Part shown: positions 15,040 to 36,334 of the stretch, piece by piece | Layout of the letters: every line of letters begins with the position of its first letter | Position numbering within the stretch: position 1 is the stretch's first letter | From: Burkholderiales bacterium | GTDB lineage: Bacteria; Pseudomonadota; Gammaproteobacteria; Burkholderiales; Ga0077523 | Length of the DNA: 40,297 nucleotides | NCBI GenBank assembly: GCA_026125595.1 | Contig: JAHCKV010000001.1 | Span: 1 to 40,297, forward strand | Direction of reading: 5' to 3' | The notes under the pieces: generated by a model | Database searches by the model: none | Told to the model about the DNA's origin: nothing | What the model saw: the letters and a program-made list of their open reading frames with translations, nothing else | Position numbers and translations under genes: made by a program

Positions 15040-16413
15040 ATGAAGAAATTTCTGGCTCTGCTCGCCGCGGCATTCGTGCTCGGCACTGCAGGTCCCGTCT
15101 TCGCGGACGAAGAGGCCACCACGACGACCGTGACGGAAACGACCGAGGTCGCGGCTGAAGTCGTCGAAGCCGAGGCACCCGCCGCGGCGGAAGAGGAAGC
15201 GAAGCTCGACTCCGGCAACACGGCGTGGATGCTGACGTCGACCGTGCTCGTGATCATGATGGCCATTCCCGGCCTGGCATTGTTCTACGGTGGCCTCGTG
15301 CGCACCAAGAACATGCTGTCGGTGCTGATGCAGGTGTTCGTGACGTTCTCGTTGATGTCCGTGCTGTGGGTGATCGCGGGCTACTCCCTGGCGTTCACGG
15401 AAGGCAATGCACTGTTCGGCGGGTTCAGCAAGGCGTTCCTGTCGGGGATCACATCCGACTCGCTGACCGGCTCGATTCCCGAACTCGTGTTCGTGACGTT
15501 CCAGTTGACGTTCGCCTCCATCACCCCGGCCCTGATCGTCGGCGGCTTCGCCGAGCGGATCAAGTTCTCGGCCGTGCTGTGGTTCATGGCCCTGTGGCTG
15601 CTGCTGGTGTACGCACCGGTCGCGCACATGGTCTGGGGTGGCGGATTCCTCGCCGAACTGGGCGCGAAGGATTTCGCCGGCGGTACCGTGGTGCACATCA
15701 ACGCAGGGATCGCCGCGCTGATCGGTGCCATCGTGCTGGGCAAGCGGATCGGTTACGGCAAGGAGAGCATGGCGCCGCACAGCCTGACCATGACCATGAT
15801 CGGCGCGTCGCTGCTGTGGGTCGGCTGGTTCGGCTTCAACGTCGGTTCGCAACTGGCGGCCGATGGCGGAGCGGGTCTGGTGATGGTCAACACGCAAGTG
15901 GCGACTGCCGCCGCCGTGCTCGGCTGGCTGTTCATCGAATGGCTGGTCAAGGGCAAACCGTCGATGCTGGGTGGTGCCTCCGGTGCGGTCGCCGGGCTCG
16001 TGGCGATCACGCCGGCCTGCGGTTTTGTCGGTCCGATGGGGTCGATCATCCTGGGCGTCATCGCCGGTGTGGTCTGCTTCTGGGCCGTGACCGGTTTGAA
16101 GTCGATGTTCCGCTACGACGATTCGCTGGACGTCTTCGGCGTCCACGGTATCGGTGGGATCGTCGGTGCCGTGTTGACCGGTGTGCTGATGGCCCCCGGT
16201 CTCGGTGGCGTCGGGTTCGACGAAGGCATCACGATGGGGGCCCAGGTCTGGAAACAGATCGTCGCCGTCCTCGTCACCATCGTCTGGTGCGCAGTCGTGA
16301 GCTTCATCCTCTTCAAGATCATCGATCTGGTGATCGGTCTGCGCGTCAGCGAAGACAAGGAGCGCGAAGGTCTCGACATCACCGAACACGGTGAAACCGC
16401 GTACCACCCCTGA
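15040..16413 (+). CDS. amtB: Ammonium transporter
   Basis: 457 aa with 11 TM helices. Amt signatures are present (FAGGTVVHINAGIAALIGAIVLGKR, DDSLDVFGVHGIGGIVGA), and the gene is paired with glnK. Confidence 0.97.
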   Translation: MKKFLALLAAAFVLGTAGPVFADEEATTTTVTETTEVAAEVVEAEAPAAAEEEAKLDSGNTAWMLTSTVLVIMMAIPGLALFYGGLVRTKNMLSVLMQVFVTFSLMSVLWVIAGYSLAFTEGNALFGGFSKAFLSGITSDSLTGSIPELVFVTFQLTFASITPALIVGGFAERIKFSAVLWFMALWLLLVYAPVAHMVWGGGFLAELGAKDFAGGTVVHINAGIAALIGAIVLGKRIGYGKESMAPHSLTMTMIGASLLWVGWFGFNVGSQLAADGGAGLVMVNTQVATAAAVLGWLFIEWLVKGKPSMLGGASGAVAGLVAITPACGFVGPMGSIILGVIAGVVCFWAVTGLKSMFRYDDSLDVFGVHGIGGIVGAVLTGVLMAPGLGGVGFDEGITMGAQVWKQIVAVLVTIVWCAVVSFILFKIIDLVIGLRVSEDKEREGLDITEHGETAYHP

Positions 16414-16638: not shown

Positions 16639-17025
16639 CTACTCGGCCGCGGACGAAGAAGCGGCAGCGACCTGCGTGCCGAACGCGAAATACTTGCGAA
16701 CAGGTTCGATCACATCGACAACGCCCTTGAAGCCCGCCGGAATCACGCAGGCATCCCCGGGACCGCAGTCGGCCGCGGTGCCGTCCTCGGAAACAATTCG
16801 CAAACGCCCTTCGATGACAAAGAAGAACTCATGCATCGCGGCGGTCAGTTCGAGCCGGTAGGCACCGACCTCGCATTCCCACCAGCCACATTCGAACTCA
16901 CCGGCGGGCGCGGAAAAGCAGACCCGGGTCGTCTGGACCGGATTGCCGTGCACGCGCCGATCGGAGGCCGGATGCTCGACGACCCCGACCGTGCTGTCGG
17001 GGGTCAGAAGCGAAGCGTGAATCAT
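16639..17025 (-). CDS. Cupin-fold protein (DUF861/cupin_3-like)
   Basis: 128 aa. GEFECGWWECEVGAYRLE...HEFFFVIEGRLRIVSEDGTAADCGPGDACVIPAGFKG..VIEPVRKYF fits the small single-domain cupin pattern. It starts 22 nt downstream of the dmfA2-like gene. Confidence 0.7.
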   Translation of the reverse strand: MIHASLLTPDSTVGVVEHPASDRRVHGNPVQTTRVCFSAPAGEFECGWWECEVGAYRLELTAAMHEFFFVIEGRLRIVSEDGTAADCGPGDACVIPAGFKGVVDVIEPVRKYFAFGTQVAAASSSAAE

Positions 17026-17047: not shown

Positions 17048-19366
17048 TCATCGCCACTGTTTCTCGTCCGCGATCCAGCCCCATCCGGGCAGCGGTCCGT
17101 CCTTCAGGAACGCATCGACCACGTTCTTGGTGATTCTCGAAACATTGTTGTCGAAATTGTTGTGCGGCAACGCGCTGCCCCACGCGATGGACCCGGTCGA
17201 GAACACGGCGCCGTGGTTCGGCGCGGTGTAGTAGGTGACATCCGCCCGGACCTTCGGCTCCTGCGTGCCGCCGAATCCCGGATGCATGTAGACCACGTCT
17301 TCGACGACGAGGATGTAGTTGTCGCTGTGACCACCGGAGGATGCGAGGATCTTCGTGTGGGGCGGCGTGCCGAGTTTCAGATCGTAGCGATCCAGCTCGA
17401 CGCCGGCTGCACCGCCACGCGCCAGGCCGAAATCGCCGAACACCTCGCCCTCCACCCCGTCCATGATCCACGACACCGTCCGGTGATAGCTGTCGGGCAT
17501 GCGGCGGAACGGCCGGGATTCCTCGAAACCTTCGGCCGTGAATCCGACGCCGAGGATCTTCTGCGGCGGGCGACCGCGATTCTTCCACAGGCCGCTCTTC
17601 TCGCCCGTCGTCTGCAGGTAGTGCTCGCCGGGCTTGGCCTCCCACGCCCGGGACCCGGAATCGAGCTTGCGGACTTCCATGATCCAAGGCTGATCGTCGC
17701 GGAACCCGACGCACCAGTAGAACCCGTTGCCGCCCATGTACAACAACCGGCCGCCGCTCTCGATGTAGTCCTCGCTGGCGTCGAGCATCGGCTCCGAAAA
17801 GTATTCCGGGTGGCTTCCCGTCAGCACGCACTTGTACGGCGCGAGCGCTGCCAGGCCCTCGCGGTGCAGATCTTCGTCGGTCAGCACTTCGTAGTCGTAC
17901 GCCATCGCTTCGAGCCAGCCGATGATCGACAGGTCGGCGGGAAACTGCCACGTGCAGCCCATGCTCGACATCCGGTGCTTCGGTCGCATGTTGACGATGG
18001 GACGTCGATACGACGTGAAGCACACCCCTTTGCCATCGATGAATCGGTCGTAGGTGGACAGACCGAACTCCTGATTCTTGTACATCTCGACGTCGATCTC
18101 CGCGACGATCGGCGGTTGCCCCGCCATCGGCTGGATGATCTGCGCGTCGAAGCTCAGGTGTTCGTTCGCATAGGCGAGATAGCTGGCGGTCGGGATCAGC
18201 ATCGCGACCTTGGCCTTCGGCTGCGCCGCGCGGACGAAGAACACGACGTACTCTTCCGCCAGCCCTGTGCCGTCACCGGCACGCAGCCGCATCGCGTACA
18301 CGCCGCTGCGCAGGCTCTCCGGCACCGTGAACGCAAAGGTCGGCTCCCAGTTGCTGTCGATCATCACGTCGACATGGAACTCGATGCCGCCGTACTGCTC
18401 GGGCGCGAGCCGGAAGCAGTCCTCGCGGCCATTCCAGTTCCAGCCGGTTTGCCCACGGATCGGTTTGTTGTAGCCCACCGAATGCAGCCCGTGCGGCCCG
18501 ACATCCAGCACCGTATCGCCGATGCCGCGGGCGTCGTATCCCTTGGTCGTATCCCAGTGGGCGACCAGTCCGTCCTTGGGCAGCTCACGGCCGCTGCGGA
18601 TGCCGTCCAGCGCTTCGCGACTCAGCGCCTTCGCGTACACGCCGTGACGATCGATCTTGCCGCAATAGCATTGCCCGATGAAATGGCCGCGCAGTTCATG
18701 CCAGTCCTGCGCACCGCTCACGATGAAAGGCGCATCTTGATTGCGCGGCTTCACCCGCATCGGCTCGGTGACATGGGAGCGATAGTCGTACGGCGTGACT
18801 TTCGACAGCAGGCTGTTGTAGCGCGTCAGCATCCCTTCCTGGTAGAGCGTGACGCGTCGCGTCTGCGCGTCGTAGCTGGCGGCGACGAAGTACCAGACAT
18901 TCGCCACCAGCGGAATCTCCGCGCCGACATAGTCCACTTCGGTTCCGTCGCCCATCCAGAACTCGAGGTAGCCCTTCGGATTGATGCCGAGGCAATAGCC
19001 TTCGTTGCGATCGATGGACCAGCGCCCCACCAACGCCTGCCGCACGTTGAAGGCCGGCAGCGTCGGCTGGATATAGGCGTAGACCGTGAAGCTCTCGGAC
19101 AGCGCAAGCCGGTTCTGCGGATCAGCGACACGCAGGAACGAGCCGACCTGGGTGTACTGCTTGCGCGCCGGCCATTCGCGATTCGCCGTGCTCTGGATCT
19201 CGCGCTCGACGAAACCGGGACCGGTTGGGTGCTCGTCGCCGTGGATCAGCCGGACCAGCTGCGCCGAGATACGATCGGTGCCATCCGCGCTGACCATGAA
19301 GTTCATCGCGTCGCCGGGCTTGACGGACAGTCGGTCGCAGTAGCCGAAGATCTTGATTTGAGCCAT
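17048..19366 (-). CDS. dmfA2: N,N-dimethylformamidase large (beta) subunit-like protein
   Basis: 772 aa. The N-terminus MAQIKIFGYCDRLSVKPGD...LVRLIHGDEHPTGPGF, and the blocks SYLAYANEH, STYDRFIDGKGV, TGSHPEY, GGAAGVELDRYD and LGTPPHT, match the DmfA2 family as I recall it from Alcaligenes/Paracoccus/Methylobacterium DMFases. The size also fits (about 760 aa). Confidence 0.8.
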   Translation of the reverse strand: MAQIKIFGYCDRLSVKPGDAMNFMVSADGTDRISAQLVRLIHGDEHPTGPGFVEREIQSTANREWPARKQYTQVGSFLRVADPQNRLALSESFTVYAYIQPTLPAFNVRQALVGRWSIDRNEGYCLGINPKGYLEFWMGDGTEVDYVGAEIPLVANVWYFVAASYDAQTRRVTLYQEGMLTRYNSLLSKVTPYDYRSHVTEPMRVKPRNQDAPFIVSGAQDWHELRGHFIGQCYCGKIDRHGVYAKALSREALDGIRSGRELPKDGLVAHWDTTKGYDARGIGDTVLDVGPHGLHSVGYNKPIRGQTGWNWNGREDCFRLAPEQYGGIEFHVDVMIDSNWEPTFAFTVPESLRSGVYAMRLRAGDGTGLAEEYVVFFVRAAQPKAKVAMLIPTASYLAYANEHLSFDAQIIQPMAGQPPIVAEIDVEMYKNQEFGLSTYDRFIDGKGVCFTSYRRPIVNMRPKHRMSSMGCTWQFPADLSIIGWLEAMAYDYEVLTDEDLHREGLAALAPYKCVLTGSHPEYFSEPMLDASEDYIESGGRLLYMGGNGFYWCVGFRDDQPWIMEVRKLDSGSRAWEAKPGEHYLQTTGEKSGLWKNRGRPPQKILGVGFTAEGFEESRPFRRMPDSYHRTVSWIMDGVEGEVFGDFGLARGGAAGVELDRYDLKLGTPPHTKILASSGGHSDNYILVVEDVVYMHPGFGGTQEPKVRADVTYYTAPNHGAVFSTGSIAWGSALPHNNFDNNVSRITKNVVDAFLKDGPLPGWGWIADEKQWR

Positions 19367-19400
19367 GGGGAGAATGCGGAAAGGAAGCGGTGTATGTCGA

Positions 19401-19766
19401 TCAGGATTCGAGAAGGTCCTGCACCCGGCGCAGGAACACCGCGTGGTAGGCCTCGTTCTCGCTCGTGTAGATCTTGTCGTCGACCAGCCGCGGCGCCACG
19501 CCGCGCTGGCCGGACAGCGCGACGATGCGGTACTCCTTGAACGGTTTGGTCATGGTGATCGCGTACTTGTCCACCTGGCCGGCGCGGCGGAAGTAGACGA
19601 GCAGACGTTCCAGCTGCTCGCTGTGCTGACCGAGCGGACGCCGCCGGTGTTCTTCGATGACGTCGTCGTCGATCAGCCCTTTCAGATAGTCGCGCTGCAT
19701 CTTGTCGAACCGGCGGAAGTAGATCTGATCCTTGTCCGCGGTTTCGGTCGCCTCTTCGGGAAGCAT
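19401..19766 (-). CDS. dmfA1: DMFase small (alpha) subunit-like segment, in frame within the 3' part of the permease ORF, with its own SD and ATG
   Basis: AAAGGAGGTGAA-ATG at 19766. The 121 aa are soluble and align without gaps to the small protein at 27900..28340 (27/68 identical by hand, for example YRIVALSGQRGVAPRLVDD vs WRIGRLSGIRGVPPVFVDD, and YHAVFLRRV vs QHAIFLMRL). The segment lies 34 nt upstream of the dmfA2-like gene, which is the dmfA1 position. Confidence 0.6.
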   Translation of the reverse strand: MLPEEATETADKDQIYFRRFDKMQRDYLKGLIDDDVIEEHRRRPLGQHSEQLERLLVYFRRAGQVDKYAITMTKPFKEYRIVALSGQRGVAPRLVDDKIYTSENEAYHAVFLRRVQDLLES

Positions 19767-20984
19767 TTCACCTCCTTTCTCGGATCGGGTGGATCGGAAC
19801 TCGCTCTTCTTCTTGTTGCGCCAGGCCCGGAACTGCAGCTTCGTGCCGAACAGTCCGTTGCGCAGGAACAGCACCGTCATCATCATGATGAAACCGATCA
19901 GGATCAGCCGCATCGGCCCCCACTCGAGGAAATACTTCTCGAGGAAGATCACGATCAGCGTGCCGACGACGGCTCCTTCGGCGCGCCCGAGGCCGCCGAT
20001 CACGATCATCGCCAGCATCAGCAGCACGACATCGAAGCTGAACAGCGAAGGCGATGCACCGCGGAAATGCGCGGCGTAGAAGCCCCCGATGAAACCGAGC
20101 GCGATCGACGAGATGATGAACACCCGGATGCGTGCCGCCCGGTAGTTGATGCCGGTCGCCTCGGCGAACGCCTCCTTCTTCTCCGGTGCCGCGCGCAGGA
20201 TGCGGCCAAGACGCGTACCGTTCACGAAGCGATAGAGGAACAGCGCGCCGATCATCAACAGCATGCAAGCGTAGAAGCCCAGCAGCAGCTGATGGTTCTC
20301 GCTCCAGCTCTCCGGGAAATAGCTGTCGGCGCCGTACAACCCGCCGGTTGCCGACCCGAACAGCTTCGACTGCACGACATAGACGCGGCACAGCTCGTTG
20401 ATGCCCAGCGTCAGCAACGCGTAGTAGAACCCGTCCAGCCGCGTCGCCGGCAACGCGATCAACGTGCCGAATATCAGGCCGAAGCCGCTGCCGACGAACG
20501 GCAGCGCCCACCACGGCAGACCATAGTGGATCGACAGATAGGCCGATCCGTAGGCAGCGGCGCCGACCACCGCCGGACTCGCGAGCGAGAAGATGCCGGC
20601 CGTGCCGACGATCAGCATCCAGCACAGGTTGATCGCGGCGTAGATGCCGAAGATCGCACCGGCGGCGAGCAGCGTGCTCGATTCCACGAAAGGCGCGATC
20701 GCGGCGAGCGCTGCTAGCCCGAGTACCCAGTACACCGGGCGCCGGTCGACGATGGTCTTCTCGGCGCGCAGGCTCTTCGGGTTGTAGACGCCGCGCAACC
20801 GCAGCACGTTGCGCCGCGTGAACGGGTAGCGCAGCCGCCACAGATTCGAGCTGTGGGCCGGCCACTTGTAGTACCAGCGCAGACGGCCGACGGGGTGCAG
20901 CGCCGCCTTCGATCGAGCACCCGCCGACGACCAGACGTCCTGCGGGTTCTTCCAGGCGGCGGACTTCCAGACTTTGTCGAACAT
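19401..20984 (-). CDS. UrtC/LivM-type ABC permease ORF that reads through, with no stop, into the DmfA1-like segment
   Basis: 527-aa ORF. An ~85-aa cytoplasmic N-terminus is followed by a hydrophobic permease core ending ...VLFLRNGLFGTK, then the basic linker LQFRAWRNKKKSEFRSTRSEKGGE, then the DmfA1-like 121 aa. The start is 3 nt after the upstream permease stop. Confidence 0.8.
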   Translation of the reverse strand: MFDKVWKSAAWKNPQDVWSSAGARSKAALHPVGRLRWYYKWPAHSSNLWRLRYPFTRRNVLRLRGVYNPKSLRAEKTIVDRRPVYWVLGLAALAAIAPFVESSTLLAAGAIFGIYAAINLCWMLIVGTAGIFSLASPAVVGAAAYGSAYLSIHYGLPWWALPFVGSGFGLIFGTLIALPATRLDGFYYALLTLGINELCRVYVVQSKLFGSATGGLYGADSYFPESWSENHQLLLGFYACMLLMIGALFLYRFVNGTRLGRILRAAPEKKEAFAEATGINYRAARIRVFIISSIALGFIGGFYAAHFRGASPSLFSFDVVLLMLAMIVIGGLGRAEGAVVGTLIVIFLEKYFLEWGPMRLILIGFIMMMTVLFLRNGLFGTKLQFRAWRNKKKSEFRSTRSEKGGEMLPEEATETADKDQIYFRRFDKMQRDYLKGLIDDDVIEEHRRRPLGQHSEQLERLLVYFRRAGQVDKYAITMTKPFKEYRIVALSGQRGVAPRLVDDKIYTSENEAYHAVFLRRVQDLLES

Positions 20985-20987
20985 GCG

Positions 20988-21884
20988 TCAGGCCTCGCGT
21001 GCCTTGTCGAGCATTCCGGCGATGCCGCGCGGGCGGATCAGCAGGATGATGATGATCAGCGCGAACTGCGTGATCAGGACGTACTGGCCGCCGAGGTAAG
21101 CCGACGTCAGCGATTCGTTGAGCCCCAGGATTGCGGCGGCGATCAACGCGCCCGACACGCTGCCGAGCCCGCCGCACAGCGCGACACTGACGCCCTTGAT
21201 CATCGGTGTGAGGCCGGAGAACGGACTCACGAAGTAGGTCTGGCACAGCAGCACCGCCGCCAGCCCGGCGAGGGCGCCGGTCAGCGCCATCACGTAGATG
21301 CCGGTGCGGCGCACGCCGATGCCGACGATCGCGGCGCCGTGGGGATTCATCATCATCGCGCGGATCTCGAGGCCGCGGCGACTCGACTTCAGCCACGTCA
21401 GCGTCACGGCCAGCAGCAGGATCGACGACACCAGCGCGCCGGCCTTGTCCGCCGTCAGCACGATGGCGCCGAACTCGGCCTGCCATTCGCCGAACACCGG
21501 CGGCAACGTCTTCACCCGCGGGCCGAAAATCCACAGCAGGATCTGCGTGCCCATCAGGCTGAGCGCCAAGGTCGCGATCAGACCGCGGACCGGGAAGTTC
21601 GGCTTGTCGTGAATCGGGATGAACGTCATCAGGCAGACCAGTACGCCCGCCAGTGCGCCGGTGCCGATACCCGCCGCGACGACGGCGACGCCGGTGATGA
21701 TCGGATCGACGTCGACCATCAGTTCCGCAACGCCCCACGCGCCATAGCCGGCGACGGCGAACGTAAGGCCGTACGCCATGTTGACCATGCCGACGCTGGA
21801 CCAGGTGATCGAGATGCCGATCGCGAGCAGTCCGTAGATCGAGGCCAGGGTCAGCGCCGACAGCAGGATGTACGACCAATCCAT
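20988..21884 (-). CDS. UrtB/LivH-type ABC permease
   Basis: 298 aa and polytopic, with family-typical MDWSYILLSALTLASIYGLLAIGISITWSSVGMVNMAYG. It abuts the ATPase gene stop. Confidence 0.9.
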   Translation of the reverse strand: MDWSYILLSALTLASIYGLLAIGISITWSSVGMVNMAYGLTFAVAGYGAWGVAELMVDVDPIITGVAVVAAGIGTGALAGVLVCLMTFIPIHDKPNFPVRGLIATLALSLMGTQILLWIFGPRVKTLPPVFGEWQAEFGAIVLTADKAGALVSSILLLAVTLTWLKSSRRGLEIRAMMMNPHGAAIVGIGVRRTGIYVMALTGALAGLAAVLLCQTYFVSPFSGLTPMIKGVSVALCGGLGSVSGALIAAAILGLNESLTSAYLGGQYVLITQFALIIIILLIRPRGIAGMLDKAREA

Positions 21885-22607
21885 TCAGGCCTCCCGCACC
21901 GTTTGGGCGGCGAGCCCCACGGCAGCCTCGCCCTTCAGCTTGCCGGCATGCATGCCGATCAGACGATTCACGCGACCTTCCAGAAGCGACACGTTCTGCT
22001 CGGCGATCACCATCGCGGCGTCGCCGAGTTCGACGCTCATCAACGCGTCGACCACGCCCTTGCTGATCTTCGGCGCGAGACCGAGCGACGGCTCGTCCAC
22101 CAGGAACAGCGACGCATCGGCCATCAGTCCGCGACCGAGCGACACCATGCGCCGCTCGCCGCCCGACAACCGACCGACCGCGGTCGCCATCAGCTTCTCG
22201 AGCGGCGGAAAGATCTCCAGCACGCGGCGCTTGCGTTGCGCGCGTTCGCGCCAGGCCCGCGGCGTGAACGCGCCGCTGTCGAGGTGTTCCTCGACGGTAA
22301 GTCCGGTGAAGATCTCGTCGCCCTGCGGCATCAGCGCGAGACCGAGCTTCACGACCCGATGGGTGAATCGTCCCGGTCCCTGACTGCGCGTGCCGCCGAC
22401 TTCATGACCGTTCAGCCGGATCGATCCACGCTGCCAGCCGGTGAGTCCTGCGATCGCGAGGAACAGCGTCGACTTGCCGTGGCCGTTGAGACCCACCAGC
22501 CCGACCCGCTCGCCGGAATACACGACGAGATCCAGATCGTGCAGCACGCGCAGCGGACCGTAGCCGGCGGACAGGCCCTTGACGTTGAGCACTTCGCGCG
22601 TGGCCAT
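21885..22607 (-). CDS. UrtE/LivF-type ABC ATP-binding protein
   Basis: 240 aa with Walker A GLNGHGKST, the signature LSGGERRM, and Walker B LFLVDEPSLGLAP. Confidence 0.9.
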   Translation of the reverse strand: MATREVLNVKGLSAGYGPLRVLHDLDLVVYSGERVGLVGLNGHGKSTLFLAIAGLTGWQRGSIRLNGHEVGGTRSQGPGRFTHRVVKLGLALMPQGDEIFTGLTVEEHLDSGAFTPRAWRERAQRKRRVLEIFPPLEKLMATAVGRLSGGERRMVSLGRGLMADASLFLVDEPSLGLAPKISKGVVDALMSVELGDAAMVIAEQNVSLLEGRVNRLIGMHAGKLKGEAAVGLAAQTVREA

Positions 22608-22610
22608 CGT

Positions 22611-23365
22611 TCAGTGCTCCGCGCCGAGGTTGTCGAAATAGGCGGCGCGCACACGGGCGTCGGCGAGAATGTCCCGCATCTGGCCCTGCGCGATGACCTC
22701 GCCGACATCCATGACCAGCACGCGATCGGCGATGGTGTCGAGCAGCTCGATCCGGTGCTCGACGATGACGATGGCAACGTTGAGTTCCTTCGCCAGCAAC
22801 CGCACCAGATGATCGATCTCGTCGACCTCGGAGTTGATCAAGCCGGCGGCGGGCTCGTCCATCAGCAGCAGCGGCGGTCGACGCATCAAGCAGGCAGGCC
22901 AGCAAAGCTGCGACGATTGAGTGTCTCGAGGCTGCCGGCGATCTGATCTTCGTTGACCTTCAGCCCGACCAGTTCACACGCCCAGTCGGCATGGTGCCGG
23001 GTGCGATAGGGCGCGTAGGCCTGCCGGGCCGCCTTCAGCACTTCGGCAACGGTCAATTCCTCGGGCACCACCGGCGTTTGATAGGTGCGTCCCAGCCCCA
23101 TGCGCGCACGCTCGTACAAGCGCATCCCGGTGACATCCTGATCCTTGAACCGGACCACGCCGCTCTTGGGCGGCATGCGCCCCGACAGCACTTCGAACAG
23201 GCTGGTCTTGCCGGCGCCGTTCGGTCCGATGATGCCCAGCACCTCGCCGCGCCGGACCGACAGCGACACGCCCTTCAGGATCTCCCGCCCGCCCAGGTCG
23301 AGCCGGATATCGCGACACTCGAACAGGGGCGAAGCGGGATCGGCAGTGGACACCGTCGCGTTCAC
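22611..23365 (-). pseudogene. UrtD/LivG-type ABC ATP-binding gene, reading frame broken just before Walker B
   Basis: The N-terminal ORF 22886..23365 has Walker A GPNGAGKTS and the Q-loop. The C-terminal ORF 22611..22889 begins (L)MRRPPLLLMDEPAAGL (Walker B). The expected connecting helix LLACLL is readable only in the third frame (ORF starting at 22905). The frame changes map to about 22906 and about 22887-22890. Confidence 0.75.
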
Positions 23366-23387: not shown

Positions 23388-24668
23388 TCAGGCCATCCAG
23401 GCCGCGGGCTTGAAGCCGGTTTCCTTCAGGCCGTACGGGTAGATGATCTTGTGCTCACCGCCCTGCACCTGGAAGTACAGCTGCCCCATGCCCTTGTCGA
23501 TGTCCGGCGTGCCCACCGGAAAGTGCACGCCTTCCTGCCGCGCGTTGTTGAGGTACGACCAGCCGCATACGCCGCGATAGGGCGTCTTGCGGATGTAGTC
23601 GTTGACGGCCTTGAAGTTGTCCGGATCGCCGGTCTTGGTCCACGCCTGCGCGAGGAAGTTGACGATGTCGTAGCCGCCACCGGTGTAGCACAGTCCCATC
23701 ACCTTGCCGGGGAAACGCTTCTTGTACTTGGCACGGAACGCAGACCCCTTCTCGTCGGCGTAAACGCCGAGCACCGTGCTCCACACGAATCCTTCGGCGG
23801 CCTTGCCCGACAACGTCAGGAACTCCGGCTGCGACGGACCGTACTGCAGATACACCAGCGCGCCCTTCAACGGATTGGCCTGGAACTGCTTCACGAACGC
23901 GGCGTACTCCGCGGCGACCCAGTGGTCGACCATCACCGCGCCGGCGCCGGTGCGCTTGATGTCCTGGATCACCTGTCCCCAGTCCTGCACCGGGTACTGG
24001 ATGTCGGTGACTTTCGCCAGCTCGAACTTGCTCGACTTCAACGCTTCCTGACAGGCCTTCGAGATCGTCTGGTTGTAGGCGATCTGCTCCTGGATGATGT
24101 GTACCTTGTTGTTGATCGGCTTCCAGCCGCCTTTCTCGGACAGATCTTCGAGGAACTTCGGAAATGTGTAGCCGTAGTAGACCTCGGACGGATCCATCTG
24201 GAACATGTGGCTGTACTTGTCCGGGTTCGCCGCGACCAGATCCGTGCAGGCGCGCTGCGTGTTCCCGTGCAGGTAGGGGCACTTGTAGTTGACCGATGCT
24301 TCCATCGCCGGCACCGGCACGAACAGGAACGGCGACGAGATCGCGTGCACCTTCAGATCGACCAGCTTGCGGATCACGGCCTGGCAACTTTCCGGCGACA
24401 ACACGTCGACGTCGACGGGCTTCAATTCCAGCGGGCGCCCCAGAATGCCGCCGGCCGCGTTGATCTCCTCGGCTGCGAGGATCGAACCGTTCAGGTGATC
24501 CGCGTGGTCCGCGACACCGGCCGCCGCGGTCTTGGAGATCGTCAGGCCGAGAACGATGGGTTTGCCCTTGGGGGTCTGCGCCCGGGCGGACCCGAGCGGC
24601 AGCATGGAGGCACCGGCCACCGCGGCCATGCCCTTGATTGCGTCACGACGATCGAAGCTGCTGGACAT
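23388..24668 (-). CDS. Periplasmic substrate-binding protein, UrtA/FmdD/AmiC-like (urea/short-chain amide type), Tat signal
   Basis: ATG at 24668 after AGGAGA. The N-terminus MSSSFDRRDAIKGMAAVAGASMLPLGSARA is a twin-arginine signal. GSILAAEEINAAGGILGRPLELKPVDV resembles the UrtA/Leu-binding-protein fold. The longer ORF-track N-terminus is Cys/Arg-rich and is rejected. Confidence 0.85.
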   Translation of the reverse strand: MSSSFDRRDAIKGMAAVAGASMLPLGSARAQTPKGKPIVLGLTISKTAAAGVADHADHLNGSILAAEEINAAGGILGRPLELKPVDVDVLSPESCQAVIRKLVDLKVHAISSPFLFVPVPAMEASVNYKCPYLHGNTQRACTDLVAANPDKYSHMFQMDPSEVYYGYTFPKFLEDLSEKGGWKPINNKVHIIQEQIAYNQTISKACQEALKSSKFELAKVTDIQYPVQDWGQVIQDIKRTGAGAVMVDHWVAAEYAAFVKQFQANPLKGALVYLQYGPSQPEFLTLSGKAAEGFVWSTVLGVYADEKGSAFRAKYKKRFPGKVMGLCYTGGGYDIVNFLAQAWTKTGDPDNFKAVNDYIRKTPYRGVCGWSYLNNARQEGVHFPVGTPDIDKGMGQLYFQVQGGEHKIIYPYGLKETGFKPAAWMA

Positions 24669-24983
24669 GGTCGTTCTCCTGAACGGGTTTCCGCGAAGCG
24701 ATCGACGGCGCGATGCGCTGCATCGGGCCATCCCCTCACCATCGGCATCGCACGAAACGCGCGCGCCGCATCGACCCGGGAACGATAGACAACGGCGCAT
24801 CGATTGGGACCCGTACAGATGGACGGGTCCGATGTCGGAATCGACGCAGCAGCACGCGCGACGGGGCGTCACCGTCGATGACGACACGACGCTGAACAGC
24901 GATGCCATGGGAAAAGTCGCCGCACGCTGCGGCGATGACGGGAAGGGATGCCGGCTCGAAACGGCGCGCGCGGCCGCCGTGAA

Positions 24984-26012
24984 TCAGCCGAAGTGCTCGC
25001 GCTCCAGCCGGCGGTAGCGGCGCAGCAGTTCGTCGTAGTCGACGAACCCGTTGTCGTCGCGCAGCAGAGAGGCCAGTTCACCTTTGTCGTTCACGTGCAA
25101 CTTCTCGTACACGGAGCGCAGATAGAAGCGCACGGTCGCCGGCGACAGCGCGAACGTGCGGGCAATCTCCTTGTAGCTCGCGCCGCCGCTGAACTCGTGG
25201 GCGATGGTCGCCTCCCGCGCGGTCAGCACGTCGGTGCGCTGACGCGTCCGCACCGCTACCAGCAGGAAATCGCCGAGCGGATAGCGGCGCACGACGATGC
25301 GGGGCAGCTTCAGGTCGTTCTCGTTGCGGCGCAGCCACGCCTGCAGTGGCACCGGCAACACGGCACCCTGGTGATCCGGCCATTCGGCCTGCAGCGCTTC
25401 CTTGAAACCGCTCTCGGCATTCAGCACCTCGAACTGCCGATCGACCAGTGCGATTGCGATCTCGTTGCCGGTGACATTGGCCTTCAGGTATTCCAGCTGG
25501 AATGTACGATTCGCACTCCAGCCGGCGAACAGATGGGGCGACAGATACTGCGCGAGCAGCCGTTCCTCTTCGGTGTAGCGCCGCATGCCTTCCGAGCGAT
25601 ACAGCGACAGAAACACGAAGTGCCGTTCGGACGGCAGGTACACCGACGTGCAAAAGGCCTGACCGACACCGTGCTCGCCCATCAGCGTGTCGAGTCCGGG
25701 CGCCTCGCGGAAATGACTGCGGTCGTAGTTGACCGTGTACTTCGGTCGATCGCGGACTGCCTTGCCGAGAATGTCGTCGCCCTTCGTCTCTTCCCACAGC
25801 GGCACGAAGCCGGTGTGTAGATTGAAGCGATATGTGCTGTGCAGCAGGAAGCTTTCACCGCGCGGCTGCAGGATGCCCCACCACGCCTTGTCGAAACCGA
25901 TGAGGGACTGGACCCGACTCAGCGCTGCAAGCTGGTACTGGTCCAGAGAATTGCTGTGCGCGAGCTCATGCAGATCGAGCACGGCATCGCTGAACTCCGT
26001 CAAATCGAACAT
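24984..26012 (-). CDS. LuxR-family transcriptional regulator (DmfR-like position)
   Basis: ATG at 26012 after GGAGGG. The C-terminal HTH is LTAREATIAHEFSGGASYKEIARTFALSPATVRFYLRSVYEKLHV. The large N-terminal ligand/autoinducer-unrelated domain has a length comparable to LuxR-type activators of dmf genes. Confidence 0.8.
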   Translation of the reverse strand: MFDLTEFSDAVLDLHELAHSNSLDQYQLAALSRVQSLIGFDKAWWGILQPRGESFLLHSTYRFNLHTGFVPLWEETKGDDILGKAVRDRPKYTVNYDRSHFREAPGLDTLMGEHGVGQAFCTSVYLPSERHFVFLSLYRSEGMRRYTEEERLLAQYLSPHLFAGWSANRTFQLEYLKANVTGNEIAIALVDRQFEVLNAESGFKEALQAEWPDHQGAVLPVPLQAWLRRNENDLKLPRIVVRRYPLGDFLLVAVRTRQRTDVLTAREATIAHEFSGGASYKEIARTFALSPATVRFYLRSVYEKLHVNDKGELASLLRDDNGFVDYDELLRRYRRLEREHFG

Positions 26013-26202
26013 CGTCCCTCCGAAGGCCGGCCGGTTCGAGACTCGCCACGATCGGATTGTGCGTGACTGAACCGGGTATCGCACCGCTGATCGCGCGACG
26101 GCAACGGTTCGGCCGGCGACTCAGTGCCGCACCTTTCGTGCCATTGCTTCCGACGGCGCTAGTAGGCTGATTGCAGAGTGGATTGACGCTCGGGATCCGC
26201 GC

Positions 26203-27899: not shown

Positions 27900-28340
27900 A
27901 TGATATCCATCCCGCGAAAAGGGACTCCGGAGTACGACCGCCTCGTGCGCGAGCACGAGGCCTGCATGAAATCGATGAAAGGCGTCGCAGGCTGTTCCGT
28001 ACTGATGTGCAAGACGCCCGGTGACACGACGGAGATCTCCGGCGGCATTCACGAAGATCTTCTGCTCAACCGCGTGCTGTTGCGCATGCGCACGCTGCCG
28101 GCCAAGAACAAGCTGGTCGTGATCTGCACCAAGCTGGAAAAAGAATGGCGCATCGGCCGGCTGTCCGGCATTCGCGGCGTCCCGCCGGTGTTCGTGGACG
28201 ACCGCACATTCGACGACGAGCAGATGGTGCAACACGCCATCTTCCTGATGCGTCTGGACGAAATGGCCGAAACCGACGGCATGCCCGAGCACTTCCACGA
28301 AGGCTGGAAGCGGCGCAACGACAACTGGACGGCAACCTGA
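27900..28340 (+). CDS. DMFase small (alpha) subunit-like protein, paralog 2
   Basis: ATG at 27900 after GAGGAGA. The 146 aa are homologous to the C-terminal segment of ORF 19401..20984 (see there). It lies 52 nt upstream of a DMFase large-subunit homolog. Confidence 0.6.
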   Translation: MISIPRKGTPEYDRLVREHEACMKSMKGVAGCSVLMCKTPGDTTEISGGIHEDLLLNRVLLRMRTLPAKNKLVVICTKLEKEWRIGRLSGIRGVPPVFVDDRTFDDEQMVQHAIFLMRLDEMAETDGMPEHFHEGWKRRNDNWTAT

Positions 28341-28392: not shown

Positions 28393-30804
28393 ATGATGCG
28401 GCTCACTGGGTACGCCGACAAATTCGGCGTGCACCCCGGCGACACGATTCGCTTCTACGTCAACTGCGACGGACCCAAGGCCTACAAGGCCGAGGTCGTC
28501 CAGATGATCAACGGCGACACCAATCCGCGCGGCCCCGGCTTCATCGAGAAGGCGGTCAGCGCATCGATCAACGGCGAATACACCGGCCGCAAGCAGGTGA
28601 TCCACAGCGGTTCGTACGGCTACGTGACGGACAAGCCGGCGCTGCGCGTGCAGAGCTTCACGCTGCAATGCTGGATCTGGCCGACGACGCCGAAGACGCA
28701 CCCGAAGTACTGGAAGCACGGTCCGCAGGGACTGTTGACCAAGTGGTCGCCCGCGGATGGCGGTTACGGCCTGTTCATCAACGAAGCCGGCTGCCCGGAA
28801 CTGCGCGTCAACGGCAAGACGCTCACCACCGGTGCGCCGCTGCGCGACCACGCGTGGCATTTCCTCGCGGCCACCTACGACGCGAAGACCGGTGAAGCCA
28901 TCCTGTATCAGGAACCGCAACTCACCTATGCGCTCGATCCGGAGATTCCGCCGGCGAAGGCCGTGCTGTCCGAGAAGATCTCGCAATCGGCCATACCGTT
29001 CGTGATCGCCGGCTACGTCGGCAAGGCCGATGGCGGGCCCCTCGCGGCTTCGTCGCTGCCGAAGGGCGTCGAGATCGCCGGCAAGTACAACGGCAAGATC
29101 GACAGCCCGCGCGTCTGCAATCGTGCGCTGTCGCGGCTCGAGATCGAAACGATGAAGCTCGGTGGCCAGACCGGCATGGACGAACGACGCGGCAGCGGCC
29201 CCACGCCGAAGCTGTCGGAATGCCTCGTCGCCGCGTGGGATTTCGGTGTCGGCATCAACACGCTGACCTGCACGGACAAGGGACCTTATCTGTTCCACGC
29301 GAGTCTCGTGAACTGCCCCACCCGCGCGATGACCGGTTACAACTGGTCCGGTCACAACTTCGACTGGAAGCACGCGCCGGCCGAATACGGCGCGATCCAC
29401 TTCCACGACGACGATGTGGATGATGCACGCTGGGATGCCGATGTCGTGTGGGAAGTCCCGAAGGATCTGAAGAGCGCGTGCTATGCGTTGAAGCTGACGA
29501 CGCCCGACGACGATGAGGATTACATCCCGTTCTTCGTCGTACCGCAGGTGGGCCAGGAAACCGCGAAGATCGCGGTGATGATCCCGACCATCAGCTACAT
29601 GGCCTACGCCAACGAGCACCTGGCCAACAACGCCGGCGGCGCGGAGCTGCTGGTGTACCGGGTGCCGATCATGCAGCACCAGAACATGTTCCTGTCGGAA
29701 CACCGCGAGTACGGCGGCTCGATCTACGACACCCACACCGACGGCAGCGGCTTGTGCCTGTCGTCGCGGTTGCGTCCGATCCTCAGCATTCGCCCGAAGT
29801 ACGACCACTTCCTGTCGCAATCGCCGTGGCAGTATCCGGCCGACCTGCACCTGATCTACTGGCTCGAAGTGAACGGCTACAAGTACGACGTGATCACCGA
29901 CGAGGACGTCAACTACGACGGCCTGGCGCGGCTGCAGAACTACAACGTCGTCATCACCGGCTCCCATCCGGAGCACAACTCCGGCCCGCAACTCGACGCT
30001 CTGCACAACTACACGCAGCAAGGCGGTCGCCTGATGTACATGGGCGCGGACGGTTGGTACTGGGTGCACTCGTACCACCCGGGCTACGACCACCTCGGTC
30101 GCGGCATCGTCACCGAAATGCGTCGTTGCGAATCCGGCATCCGGACCTGGCGCGCCGATCCGGGCGAGTACTACCACCAGTCCACCGGTGAGCTGGGCGG
30201 CATGTGGCGGTATCGCGGCCGCTATCTGCACACCGTTGCCGGTACCGGCATGTCGTCGGAAGGCTTCGACATCTCGACCTACTACTCCCGTACACCGGAG
30301 AGCAACGACCCCCGGGTGTCGTGGGCGTTCGAAGGCATCGAGCAGGATGCGAAGCTCGGCAACTTCGGTCTCGTCGGTGGCGGCGCGGCCGGCACCGAGC
30401 TCGACATCGTCGACACCATGCTGGGTTCTCCGCCGCACACGCTGGTCGTCGCGACGTCGGCCGGACGGCACACCGAAGGCTATCTGCTGGTCATGGAAGA
30501 CTATGGCTTCAACCAGCAGGGTCTCGACGGTACGCAGCATCCTCGCGTCCGTTCCGACATCGCGTATCACGAGACTCCCAACGGCGGCGCCTGCTTCGCG
30601 TTCAGTTCCATCGCGTTCTGCGGTTCGCTGCCGTGGAACAACGGCGATCCGGCGAAGAACAACATCTCCCGTCTCGTGAAGAACGTGCTGGACCGGTTCA
30701 TGGCGGATGGACCGCTGCCGCCGCCGCCGAAGGACAGCTTCATCCATCGGGGACGCGCGGACTACGATCCGCCCGGCAACAAGGTGTCGAACGTTCGCGG
30801 CTAG
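28393..30804 (+). CDS. DMFase large (beta) subunit-like protein, divergent paralog 2
   Basis: 803 aa. It shares the N-terminal pattern (GYADKFGVHPGDTIRF...VVQMINGDTNPRGPGF) and the blocks SYMAYANEH, SIYDTHTDGSG, TGSHPEH, GGAAGTELD, LGSPPHT and DGPLP with the copy at 17048..19366. Residues ~90-330 are strongly diverged, and there is an extra C-terminal tail (PPPPKDSFIHRGRADYDPPGNKVSNVRG). Confidence 0.8.
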   Translation: MMRLTGYADKFGVHPGDTIRFYVNCDGPKAYKAEVVQMINGDTNPRGPGFIEKAVSASINGEYTGRKQVIHSGSYGYVTDKPALRVQSFTLQCWIWPTTPKTHPKYWKHGPQGLLTKWSPADGGYGLFINEAGCPELRVNGKTLTTGAPLRDHAWHFLAATYDAKTGEAILYQEPQLTYALDPEIPPAKAVLSEKISQSAIPFVIAGYVGKADGGPLAASSLPKGVEIAGKYNGKIDSPRVCNRALSRLEIETMKLGGQTGMDERRGSGPTPKLSECLVAAWDFGVGINTLTCTDKGPYLFHASLVNCPTRAMTGYNWSGHNFDWKHAPAEYGAIHFHDDDVDDARWDADVVWEVPKDLKSACYALKLTTPDDDEDYIPFFVVPQVGQETAKIAVMIPTISYMAYANEHLANNAGGAELLVYRVPIMQHQNMFLSEHREYGGSIYDTHTDGSGLCLSSRLRPILSIRPKYDHFLSQSPWQYPADLHLIYWLEVNGYKYDVITDEDVNYDGLARLQNYNVVITGSHPEHNSGPQLDALHNYTQQGGRLMYMGADGWYWVHSYHPGYDHLGRGIVTEMRRCESGIRTWRADPGEYYHQSTGELGGMWRYRGRYLHTVAGTGMSSEGFDISTYYSRTPESNDPRVSWAFEGIEQDAKLGNFGLVGGGAAGTELDIVDTMLGSPPHTLVVATSAGRHTEGYLLVMEDYGFNQQGLDGTQHPRVRSDIAYHETPNGGACFAFSSIAFCGSLPWNNGDPAKNNISRLVKNVLDRFMADGPLPPPPKDSFIHRGRADYDPPGNKVSNVRG

Positions 30805-33690: not shown

Positions 33691-34731
33691 TCAGTCGGGT
33701 GCGCCGCCGGGCGACGTCGCCGCCCCGTCGTCGTAGCGCGCGAGCCATTCCAGCGCCATGTCACGGTAGCGCGTGAGACCCTTGTAGTCGACCAGTTGCT
33801 GCGGCAAGGACCGCAGCACCCGCGGCAACCGGCGACCCCATTTCGGCACGGTGACCAGGTCCTCGAGGCTGATCAGGTAGCAGCGGATCGGAAACACGAT
33901 CGCATTGCTGCGCGGCAGCCGCCAGAAGCTCTGCAGCTCGACGCGCAGGTGCAGCTTGCGGCCGATGTTGTCGGGCGTCAGCGAGAGCCGGTCGGGACCC
34001 CAGCTCGGGTAACGTTCCGGCGACGTATCGAGCCGCGGATTGACGGTCATGGTCCAGTTGAGCCGGCGCACCGGCGAGCCGACCCGCAGTTCGAGCAGGT
34101 ACTTCAACGCCCGCTCGAACACGCCCATCTCGTGGGCCAGCGGCACCGGACCGTGCCATTCGAAGAAGTTCATGCCGATGTCGAAATCGAGCGACCAGTC
34201 GGCCTGCGTCGTGATCATCCCGGCATCCATCCAAAGATTGCCGTCGCGGTGATCGAGCAGCGCGAAGTCGCCCTGGGACTGCCGCGTGACGTATTCCATG
34301 GGCTCGCACGGCAGCGTCAACGCATCGCCGAACACGAACCGCTGATCGAGTCCGAGCGGCCGGTTGATCCAGTGCCAGCGGTCACCGTCGCGAGTCAGTG
34401 CGAAGTGCTCGGGGTAGTCCCGCGCCATCGCCGTCATCAACAGTTCCAGCAGATCCCATTGCGCGGTCATCATGTGCGGCAGCGCCTGGCAGCGCAGCGG
34501 ATCCTCGCGCAGCACCAGCGCGCGATCGCGCATCTCGGACACGTAGTGCTCGTCCACGTCGATCGGAAACTCGTAGACGGAGCCTTTCGGCCCGGGCACG
34601 TGGGGCTCGATGTTGACCGCGTACATGTACCGGTCCTCGTGGAACGGGAACGGGAAGCGCCGGATCGCGTGGGGACTGTTGCGGAACGTGAAGTCGTCCC
34701 GGAACGTCTCTTCGTTGAATGCCAGTTCCAT
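33691..34731 (-). CDS. dmmC: Heme-dependent oxidative N-demethylase alpha / dimethylamine monooxygenase DmmC (DUF3445)
   Basis: 346 aa, MELAFNEETFRDDFTFRNSPHAIRRFPFPFHEDRYMY... The family call comes from the sequence pattern and from the position as the last gene of a D-A-B-C order. Confidence 0.8.
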   Translation of the reverse strand: MELAFNEETFRDDFTFRNSPHAIRRFPFPFHEDRYMYAVNIEPHVPGPKGSVYEFPIDVDEHYVSEMRDRALVLREDPLRCQALPHMMTAQWDLLELLMTAMARDYPEHFALTRDGDRWHWINRPLGLDQRFVFGDALTLPCEPMEYVTRQSQGDFALLDHRDGNLWMDAGMITTQADWSLDFDIGMNFFEWHGPVPLAHEMGVFERALKYLLELRVGSPVRRLNWTMTVNPRLDTSPERYPSWGPDRLSLTPDNIGRKLHLRVELQSFWRLPRSNAIVFPIRCYLISLEDLVTVPKWGRRLPRVLRSLPQQLVDYKGLTRYRDMALEWLARYDDGAATSPGGAPD

Positions 34732-34752
34732 GAATCTCTCCGGTGGGGCCGT

Positions 34753-35718
34753 TCAAAGGTCGAGCACGAGCTCGCGCCCGTCGAAGCGGGATACGCACGG
34801 CATGATCTTGCGCCCGGCCGCGCGGTCGGCGGTGGTCAGCCAATGGTCATGATGCTGCAGCCGACCATCACAGCCGAGCACCGCGGTTTCGCATTGTCCG
34901 CACGCACCGCCCCGACACAGATACGGCACTTCGACACCGGCGGCCTCGATCGCTTCGAGCAGGCTTTCGTGCTCGCCGACGTAGACGCGCAGGCCGGCAC
35001 GCTGCAGATACACGTCGAAGGGCGTGCCCGACGGCGGCGCCGCGAAATGTTCCGCGTGCAGATTGTGCCCGGGCCAGCCGGCCGCCCGGGCCGCCTCGAG
35101 CGTCGCGTCGATCAACGGCGTCGGGCCGCAAACGTACAGGTGGGTTCCCAGCGGCTGACTCGCCACGAGTTGCGTGACATCGAGCCGCTCCCCCTTCGAC
35201 GCACAGTAGAAGCGCACATGGCCGGGAAAGCAGCGTTCGAGCGCTTCGCGGTAGGCGCCGCGTTCCGGGCTACGGATGCAGTAGTGCAGCTCGAACGGCC
35301 GACCTTCGGCCGACAACTGGGCCATCTGCGCCAGGAACGGCGTGATGCCGATGCCGCCGGCCACCAGCACGTGCTTGCGGGCGCGCCAGTCCAGCATGAA
35401 CAGATTCACCGGCGCACTGACGGCGAGCGTATCGCCGACCCGGACGCGATCGTGCATGAACACCGAACCGCCGCGGGACACTTCGGCCCGTTGCACGCTG
35501 ATCTCGTAGTCGCCGTCGTGCAGCGGAGAACTCGTCAGCGAATACGGGTTGCGGCGAACGACGCCGCCATCGCGCATCTCGACGACGATGTGCGCCCCGC
35601 CCGAGTATCGCGGCAGCGGCGAAGCGTCGGTCGCGGCGAGGCGGAACCGCTTGACGAACGGCGTGACCGGAACGATCTCGGCGACGCGCACGGGACTGGA
35701 ACGGGGGCGGATGCTCAT
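34753..35718 (-). CDS. dmmB: PDR/VanB-type FMN + [2Fe-2S] oxidoreductase, DmmB
   Basis: 321 aa with the FMN site RNPYSL, NAD(P)H site VAGGIGITP, and C-terminal plant-type ferredoxin CRGGACGQC...C. The start overlaps the dmmA stop (ATGA at 35718..35715). Confidence 0.88.
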   Translation of the reverse strand: MSIRPRSSPVRVAEIVPVTPFVKRFRLAATDASPLPRYSGGAHIVVEMRDGGVVRRNPYSLTSSPLHDGDYEISVQRAEVSRGGSVFMHDRVRVGDTLAVSAPVNLFMLDWRARKHVLVAGGIGITPFLAQMAQLSAEGRPFELHYCIRSPERGAYREALERCFPGHVRFYCASKGERLDVTQLVASQPLGTHLYVCGPTPLIDATLEAARAAGWPGHNLHAEHFAAPPSGTPFDVYLQRAGLRVYVGEHESLLEAIEAAGVEVPYLCRGGACGQCETAVLGCDGRLQHHDHWLTTADRAAGRKIMPCVSRFDGRELVLDL

Positions 35719-36320: not shown

Positions 36321-36334
36321 GTTCGCGACCTCTT

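Follow-up and report, generated by a model that had tools for sequence, protein, structure and literature searches.

The window analysed here, a stretch of 40,297 nucleotides (nt) from a Burkholderiales bacterium (contig JAHCKV010000001.1), contains on its minus strand an open reading frame (ORF) that joins a LivM-type permease of an ATP-binding cassette (ABC) importer to a homolog of the small subunit (α) of N,N-dimethylformamidase (DMFase). The two parts are connected by a basic linker, which carries a Shine–Dalgarno (SD) string just before an in-frame ATG at the start of the α domain, and the gene for a DMFase large subunit (β1) follows (Table 1). The GenBank protein MCW5623106.1 has the same length as this ORF and is annotated ‘branched-chain amino acid ABC transporter permease’.

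Table 1 The fused gene, its component parts and the associated genes in the window (aa, amino acids; AF2, AlphaFold2 model).
Feature	Coordinates	Strand	Details	Basis
Fused ORF, permease + linker + DMFase α domain	19401..20984	-	527 aa, complete	
Permease part	19839..20984	-	residues 1-382; membrane core ends ...LFLRNGLFGTK	Pfam, hydropathy, K+R counts, AF2
Basic linker	19767..19838	-	LQFRAWRNKKKSEFRSTRSEKGGE; 24 residues, 8 K/R	codon-position entropies, 80 loci
Embedded SD	19768..19778	-	AAAGGAGGTGA, within K-G-G-E codons	anti-SD duplex energy, rare codons
In-frame internal ATG	19764..19766	-	Met407, candidate internal start	homologous to free α2 start codon
DMFase small-subunit domain (DMF_alpha, PF26354)	19401..19766	-	121 residues + stop codon	6LVB_B, AF2, Foldseek
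Spacer	19367..19400	-	34 nt, pyrimidine-rich, without recognisable SD	precedes large-subunit gene
DMFase large subunit β1	17048..19366	-	772 aa	DMFA2_C PF20254 E=7.7e-93
LivH-type partner permease	20988..21884	-	298 aa	PF02653 E=1.9e-28; gene order same in all loci
LivF-type ABC ATPase	21885..22607	-	240 aa	ORF, conserved synteny
LivG-type ABC ATPase	22611..23365	-	split in two ORFs (159 aa, 92 aa) by net -1 frameshift	
Periplasmic substrate-binding protein	23388..24908	-		weak NCBIfam LivJ/UrtA-class matches; Peripla_BP_6 on orthologs
LuxR-family regulator	24984..26084	-	DmfR-like position	C-terminal LuxR/GerE-type matches
Stand-alone divergent small subunit α2	27900..28340	+	146 aa	own SD GAGGAG
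Second large subunit β2	28393..30804	+	803 aa	PF20254 E=9.9e-91

The permease part matches BPD_transp_2 (PF02653) over residues 112-370 (E=6.8e-25; score 88 bits, cut-off 26.8), in keeping with the LivM/UrtC-type assignment made in a preliminary description of this DNA. Its scores lie below the equivalog cut-offs of LivM (NF008450, 76.6 bits vs 366) and UrtC (TIGR03408, 57 vs 296). Judged by these scores the permease is a distinct subfamily of the HAAT importers, for which the label of a ‘branched-chain amino-acid’ or urea permease is misleading. The open frame continues past ...VLFLRNGLFGTK, the last hydrophobic segment of the permease, and two CGA codons lie in the linker. The preliminary description read the frame correctly, with no stop codon after the permease core and a 24-residue basic linker leading into 121 further residues, and its other observations at the junction also hold. 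The minus strand directly 5′ of the Met codon (19766-19764) is GAGAAAGGAGGTGAA; 34 nt separate the stop codon from the 772-aa, dmfA2-like DMFA2_C gene downstream, so that α occupies the dmfA1 position 5′ of β; and the hand count of 27 identities in 68 ungapped positions between the tail and α2 is exact. None of 20,000 shuffles reached 27 identities, and BLASTP aligned the two proteins with E=2e-15.

The relationship of the tail to DMFase small subunits, likewise proposed there, is borne out by sequence, fold and family assignment. A phmmer search of the PDB matched tail residues 10-118 to 6LVB_B (E=1.8e-11), and PF26354 (DMF_alpha) is precomputed on all homologs and fused orthologs of the tail; the tail had no match in a local Pfam copy that lacks the PF26354 model or in an NCBIfam scan that lacks such a model. 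In the AF2 model, helices span residues 418-437, 440-448, 456-467 and 509-526 and strands span residues 472-480 and 484-491, with predicted local distance difference test (pLDDT) scores of 76-89. The resulting fold, with two strands and four helices of which the N- and C-terminal ones are long, has 6LVV_B and 6LVB_B as its best Foldseek matches (TM-scores of 0.81-0.83) and corresponds to the small-subunit fold described for DMFase (PMC7686228). All family-invariant residues are kept and the domain is intact. For the whole fused protein the mean pLDDT is 77.8, with values of ~90 in the permease core and a helix at low confidence in the linker.

The β1 protein aligns with 6LVB_A over residues 2-760 (E=1.1e-198) and retains the equivalents of Y399, Y440, H519, E521 and N547, of which Y399, Y440 and E521 are the Fe ligands of the 2-Tyr-1-Glu site and H519 and N547 are catalytic (PMC7686228). 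The Paracoccus DMFase is built from an α2β2 unit whose β subunit is inactive alone; the N-terminal helix of α is wedged between the large subunits, and a cavity between α and β leads to the active site (PMC7686228). Homology and synteny suggest that the window α binds β1 in the same way and is needed for its activity. The α–β gap of 34 nt is close to the median of 37 nt across 81 loci. The β1 ATG of the window has no SD (anti-SD energy of +1.9 kcal/mol), and over the 81 loci the β SD is on average weak (-4.8 kcal/mol), which suggests that β translation is coupled to the termination of α translation.

An open frame in a single sequence proves nothing by itself, as 25 linker codons free of stops are expected by chance with P=0.54 at the 65.5% GC of the contig; its significance comes from comparative data. 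A scan of one genome per species, with an alignment of eight closer sequences as the query, identified a relative of the α tail in at least 232 species genomes. The carriers range across Alpha-, Beta- and Gammaproteobacteria; methylotrophs, rhizobia, Rhodopseudomonas, marine SAR11 and Rhodobiaceae are among them. The preliminary description had proposed a check of orthologous loci for a stop codon between the permease core and dmfA1. We examined the 80 best loci, and in 79 of them at least 380 codons precede the tail in the same frame (five are shortened by contig ends), without indels in the linker. The sole exception, L080, has several broken genes. A plasmid search returned two matches in all, closed plasmids from Agrobacterium (NZ_CP110833) and Rhizobium (CP041205), on each of which the fusion is one annotated 552-aa coding sequence with 65% identity to the window protein. 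Moreover, PF02653 and PF26354 occur together on all 120 of the 120 best full-length database matches, and the fusion is represented by at least 120 protein clusters. We also considered database proteins of 183 and 202 aa that start inside the permease as unfused or overlapping variants, and rejected them on finding that their source contigs fragment every gene.

The linker itself bears the marks of a coding sequence. Across the 80 loci, entropies at the first and second codon positions (H1 and H2) are ~0, while those at the third (H3) reach 1-2 bits. Counting codons from the internal ATG as position 0, residues W-19, R-18, R-10 and R-7 are invariant although their third codon positions vary; R-10 and R-7 have H3=1.88 and 1.96 bits, H1 of 0.34 and 0.17 bits, respectively, and H2 of zero. 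Because variation falls almost only at third codon positions, the linker is translated, and purifying selection acts on its amino-acid sequence. The two CGA codons of the window are the invariant Arg positions, which relatives encode by CGC, CGT, CGG or CGA, and the window linker and tail equal the family consensus residue for residue. Thus, the comparisons indicate that the permease–α fusion is almost certainly real and translated. From them, it is a standard architecture found in more than 80 bacterial species of a widespread clade, of which the window copy is an ordinary member.

Pfam and UniProt already index the PF02653+PF26354 architecture, automatically. We found no description of the fusion in the literature that we searched, namely papers mentioning the enzyme and the results of more specific searches. 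The parts are known (DMFase α and β, and the HAAT ABC importer) and the fusion itself is unreported in the searchable literature. We know of no earlier account of an ABC importer permease that is fused to a catabolic-enzyme subunit.

The preliminary description had portrayed the small subunit as a gene ‘nested’ in the permease ORF with its own near-consensus SD. The internal ATG and SD are indeed present; the word ‘nested’ was wrong, as the gene is fused and any internal product is an N-terminally truncated proteoform in the same frame as the fusion. What is annotated and conserved is the 527-aa fusion rather than a free polypeptide of ~13-15 kDa, and a free form of this α could arise only from the internal ATG, as the sequence reads. 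The GGAGG core of AAAGGAGGTGA ends 5 nt before the ATG and AAAGGAGGTGA itself ends 1 nt before it. Its anti-SD duplex, at -15.9 kcal/mol, is the strongest among the 81 loci, exceeds 300 of 300 synonymous resamplings of the window and compares with the mean of -4.8 kcal/mol for genuine β1 starts. The near-consensus SD is therefore strong in the window, although its SD-likeness is in part automatic from the conserved peptide EKGGE. For this reading, codon-level and gene-content comparisons are more informative than anti-SD energy.

At the codon level, we compared ATG-bearing loci with the rest of the same ORFs and with control columns of the same alignment. K-4 is encoded by AAA in 63 of 69 loci, compared to 21% in the rest of the ORFs and 8-21% at five control Lys columns. 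For G-3, 56 of 71 loci use GGA or GGT (background 8% and 13%) and 9 of 71 use GGC, against a background of 64%. The bias survives thinning to <80% nucleotide identity (p=4e-10 and p=1e-5), which leaves a set with a mean pairwise third-position identity of 0.48. A/T-rich codons also follow the ATG, with GAA at +3 and +4 and TTA, TTG or CTA at +1. Free α2 genes begin, behind their own SD, at a Met homologous to Met407 (MLPEEAIETPDKD...), and an internal product would therefore equal an ordinary small subunit.

Gene content provides the strongest argument, a comparative one, for the internal start. We scored loci for a free α gene within the fetched locus. In the 75 that have none, position 0 is ATG in 72 and the SD is strong in 44; in the 15 that have a free α gene, position 0 is ATG in 4 and the SD is strong in 1. 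The three exceptions among the 75 (L082, L092 and L094) retain AAAGGAGG, and their next codon is GTG or TTG. In the free-α loci position 0 has turned into Ala, Thr, Val, Leu or Ile, and the codons used before it are the common ones, AAG GGC GGC. That position 0 varies in this manner when a free α exists indicates that the fusion protein itself does not need the Met, yet the Met is retained where no second source of free α is seen.

Two kinds of free α gene account for this pattern. A clade comprising Alsobacter, Rhodopseudomonas sp. B29 and AAP120, Rhodobacter sp. SGA-6-6 and Aestuariivirga (L071-L080) contains a free gene, α′, between the fusion and β (e.g. L071:4364-4735). It encodes ~117-125 aa with 33-41% identity to the window α tail, and its stop is spaced 3-5 nt from the β start. 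This clade lost the internal ATG and SD and keeps the fusion intact. The second kind is a tandem order of permease::α1, β1, free α2 and β2 (L081, L083 (2957-9768), L085 (2935-9750), L088, L091 and L093), which places two amidase paralogs beside one importer. Its free α2 proteins (P0027 and P0074) share 64-73% identity with the fused α of the window. The many database matches of 121 aa were considered as internal-start picks of gene callers, and the two checked on long contigs proved to be genuine free α2 genes downstream of β1.

Together, these comparisons, mixed but on balance positive, make it plausible and more likely than not that a free α is produced from the internal start in the window. 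The preliminary description had suggested, as one of two alternatives, that the fusion is produced alongside a free small subunit; the fusion half of that statement is strongly supported, while the free half draws on comparative evidence, namely ATG and SD retention, rare codons and the homologous Met.

Several observations weigh against this interpretation, and some of them would be expected if the full-length permease–α protein were the sole product, with the SD-like string a by-product of EKGGE and Met407 kept for structural reasons. EKGGE is invariant also in the clade without the ATG, which uses AAG GGC GGC; since the peptide persists where the start is gone, it must be constrained in its own right and the SD-likeness is partly a by-product. 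The GAR AAR GGN GGN GAR codons are inherently purine-rich, and synonymous resampling of them already yields about -8.5 to -9 kcal/mol. Approximately 40% of the ATG loci without a free α in the fetched segment have GGY-GGA-GAG at -7 to -8 kcal/mol, no better than the synonymous expectation, and the share of all ATG loci above that expectation is only about half. Changes of Met to Leu, Ile or Val are ordinary conservative replacements. The SD of the window is the strongest among the loci even though the divergent α2/β2 pair lies 8.5 kb from it. The Fisher tests of the gene-content pattern (ATG, p=1e-8; SD, p=3e-4), made without phylogenetic correction, overstate the evidence, as the free-α loci probably go back to no more than two to four independent lineages. 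The fetched loci had 4-kb flanks, so free α genes elsewhere in the other genomes are possible. Two further points concern the tethered complex: the linker would have to pass the ATPase subunits, with the α N-terminal helix seated in the β–β interface, and the frameshift in the livG-like ATPase means that the importer may be defective in this metagenome-assembled genome (MAG).

What a fusion as sole product leaves unexplained is the enrichment of rare AAA and GGA/GGT codons at exactly the SD positions relative to control Lys and Gly columns, and the freedom of position 0 to become Ala or Thr beside a free α gene when it is ATG in 72 of 75 loci without one. It also does not account for the strong SD with GTG or TTG at +1 in the three exceptions, or for the A/T-rich codons after the ATG. 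We regard it as a serious, if unlikely, alternative.

Instead of scaffolding an active enzyme, the fused α could sense or restrain transport from the C-terminus of the permease, for instance by gating import in response to bound β or substrate, in the manner of the C-terminal domains of MalK and MetN, and leave catalysis to a free α from the internal start or from other genes. The coexistence of tethered and free α in the α′ and α2 lineages, where the tethered copy does not make the free copy redundant, and the high conservation of the linker would suit such a role. The retention of all family-invariant residues, the 64-73% identity to free α2 proteins and the fact that the fused α is the only α beside β1 in most loci make it improbable, and regulation by the α fold is without precedent. 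It is more doubtful still, indeed very improbable, that only a free α from Met407 matters and the in-frame connection is functionless. The good internal start signals, and a free product that would be a normal small subunit, agree with this. The frame and length of the linker, however, are kept in 79 of 80 loci despite near-saturated synonymous sites (third-position identity of 0.48), W-19, R-18, R-10 and R-7 are invariant while their third positions vary, and the ATG-less clade retains the fusion intact. Finally, the preliminary description had offered as its alternative a stop codon lost or mis-called, an artefact or recent accident. For it one could cite the MAG origin of the contig, the livG-like ATPase 3 kb upstream with its real break in frame, and a 25-codon open frame unremarkable at this GC content. 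It is refuted and retains a negligible chance, given that the junction is the same and free of indels in 79 of 80 genomes and on both closed plasmids and that at least 120 protein clusters share it, given the frameshift-riddled assemblies behind the shorter 183- and 202-aa entries, and given that the linker CGA codons stand at invariant Arg positions encoded by all four CGN codons.

We therefore return to a fused gene that is, on the comparative evidence, genuine and evolutionarily fixed, with a LivM-type subunit of a HAAT-family importer carrying α at its predicted cytoplasmic C-terminus. In type II importer transmembrane domains (TMDs) the termini are cytoplasmic. The membrane domain of the window permease is weakly similar to the type II TMDs of HmuU and PsaC (Foldseek), and K+R counts identify its N-terminal 86 residues and the loop 252-285 as basic. 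As the linker, the N-terminal tail and this loop are all basic, and given the weak type II likeness, we infer that the α domain would be held on the cytoplasmic side by the basic linker. Permease residues 1-85 (20730-20984, minus strand) form a conserved, very basic extension with 19 K/R and the motif YYKWPGHG..LW.R.RYWPTRRR. The extension lies outside the BPD_transp_2 match and has two predicted β-hairpins before the first membrane helix. It is probably cytoplasmic and could be a second cytoplasmic docking element.

In the mechanism that we propose, the tethered α would bind β1 as in the solved α2β2 enzyme, which would hold the amidase against the importer on its cytoplasmic side, where the imported amide (DMF or a related N-methylated compound) would be hydrolysed at its exit. 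That the fusion tethers the amidase to the importer is likely. AAAGGAGGTGA-ATG would be a working internal translation start that yields a free 121-residue α with an N-terminus like those of ordinary small subunits. The combination, a tethered importer–amidase complex plus free α made by internal initiation, is somewhat favoured by the sequence comparisons. One transporter would have one LivM-type subunit and thus one tethered α, and since the enzyme is α2β2, the free α could serve as the second copy or form untethered enzyme. Tentatively, the importer permease may carry one α and the internal start may supply the second, with lineages that lost the internal start having replaced it by a separate α gene; this is quite possible, and we hold it less firmly than the tethering. 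As to origin, the Met may be the ancestral dmfA1 start codon and the fusion may have arisen by loss of the permease stop codon, which fits the position of EKGGE, where free α2 genes have their ribosome-binding site.

The fused gene is part of a conserved operon with the order binding protein, two ATPases, LivH-type permease, LivM-type permease::α and β1. The true start of the window binding protein is probably internal, at MSSSFDRRDAIK, with a Tat-like signal. A GerE regulator occupies the same position in L083 as the LuxR-family gene in the window; DmfR was described previously (PMC4543880). The split of the livG-like gene maps near 22,890-22,935, where a 2-nt deletion and a 1-nt insertion lie within ~25 nt of a CTG-rich stretch, as judged against five relatives, and reflects either a local assembly error in this contig or a transporter decaying in this organism. 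The frameshift leaves the family-level conclusion untouched, since the window agrees with the family consensus in both linker and tail. In two Methylobacillus genomes an insertion of ~1.28 kb separates the fusion from β1 (L019:4364-5650 and L028:4364-5650).

Downstream of β1, a EutQ-like Cupin_3 gene (16639-17025, minus strand, 128 aa) starts 22 nt past the β1 stop and is probably co-transcribed with β1. Farther along the window lie, on the minus strand, the dimethylamine monooxygenase genes dmmDABC (33691-37486), encoding a GCV_T-type DmmD, DmmA, an Fer2/NAD-binding DmmB and a HODM_asu-like DmmC, followed by a gene for an 844-aa DUF1989+GCV_T protein (37536-40070) that resembles the trimethylamine N-oxide demethylase Tdm. 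Genes for nitrogen scavenging are found on the same contig, namely a PF01425 amidase-signature enzyme (200-1609, minus strand) and an Amt ammonium transporter (15040-16413, plus strand). By its gene content, the contig appears to be a methylated-amine catabolic island, and this context fits the breakdown of N,N-dimethyl amides to dimethylamine. It is the gene context that points to a possible hydrolysis of DMF to dimethylamine and formate by the β1 enzyme.

The fused operon is also present in streamlined marine bacteria, namely a Pelagibacteraceae single-amplified genome (AG-447-E07, L069) and a Rhodobiaceae MAG (L067). There EKGGE is replaced by ERGGE, and the SD and start form a strong AGAGGAGGAGAA-ATG. 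DmfA has been reported in the Pacific in a metaproteome study (PMC9477243). Taken together, the marine operons and the Pacific DmfA argue for a natural substrate other than industrial DMF. Indeed, as DMF is a synthetic solvent, a dedicated importer–enzyme conserved in environmental bacteria points to a natural N-methylated amide.

If the tethering is correct, this family would offer a rare yet widespread example of an ABC importer with a covalent link to one subunit of an enzyme acting on its cargo, and a model for transport-coupled catalysis or substrate channelling. If lineages without the internal start did replace it by a separate α gene, this would be natural evidence that both tethered and free α proteoforms are needed. 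The complementary occurrence of an internal start or a separate α gene amounts to a natural experiment in support of functional dual-proteoform genes in bacteria. There is a consequence for annotation as well: hundreds of the fusion proteins bear the name “branched-chain amino acid ABC transporter permease”, and because of this name surveys for a separate small-subunit gene would score fused DMFase loci as lacking one.

Compared to the DmfA1-DmfA2 enzymes of Paracoccus and Methylobacterium (6LVB; dmfR-dmfA1-dmfA2, pAMI2), the window system shares the small-subunit homology and fold, an α directly 5′ of β, a full-length large subunit with identical Fe ligands and catalytic residues and a LuxR-type regulator nearby. 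It differs in that its α is the C-terminal domain of an ABC permease and its operon includes a complete five-component importer. A second solved homolog of the large subunit is N-acetyl-(R)-β-phenylalanine acylase (8HUY; E=1e-119 to β1), which is much more distant from β1 than DMFase and has no known link to a permease; this homology indicates that the large-subunit fold accepts amides other than DMF.

The HAAT family imports urea, short-chain amides and amino acids. Like LivHMGF-J, UrtABCDE and the FmdDEF-type amide/urea transporters of this family, the window importer combines a Peripla_BP_6 binding protein with two ATPases and paired BPD_transp_2 permeases, and the genes follow the usual order. 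Unlike theirs, its permease scores far under the LivM and UrtC cut-offs and has a basic N-terminal extension of ~85 residues and a C-terminal enzyme-subunit domain; we know of no described HAAT member with either addition.

The closest parallel for the proposed pair of products is ArcB, in which an SD and start codon at a domain boundary give rise to ArcB-C and thereby to anchored and diffusible copies of the domain, as established by western blot and site mutation and conserved across species (Meydan et al., 10.1101/520783). As in ArcB, the window gene encodes a membrane-anchored protein with an SD and a start codon at the boundary of its C-terminal domain. ArcB-C was shown experimentally, whereas the evidence for the window fusion is comparative, and the domain concerned is an enzyme subunit rather than a phosphotransfer domain. 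The fusion family further differs from ArcB in that, in lineages where the internal start has been lost, the free domain is encoded by a gene of its own.

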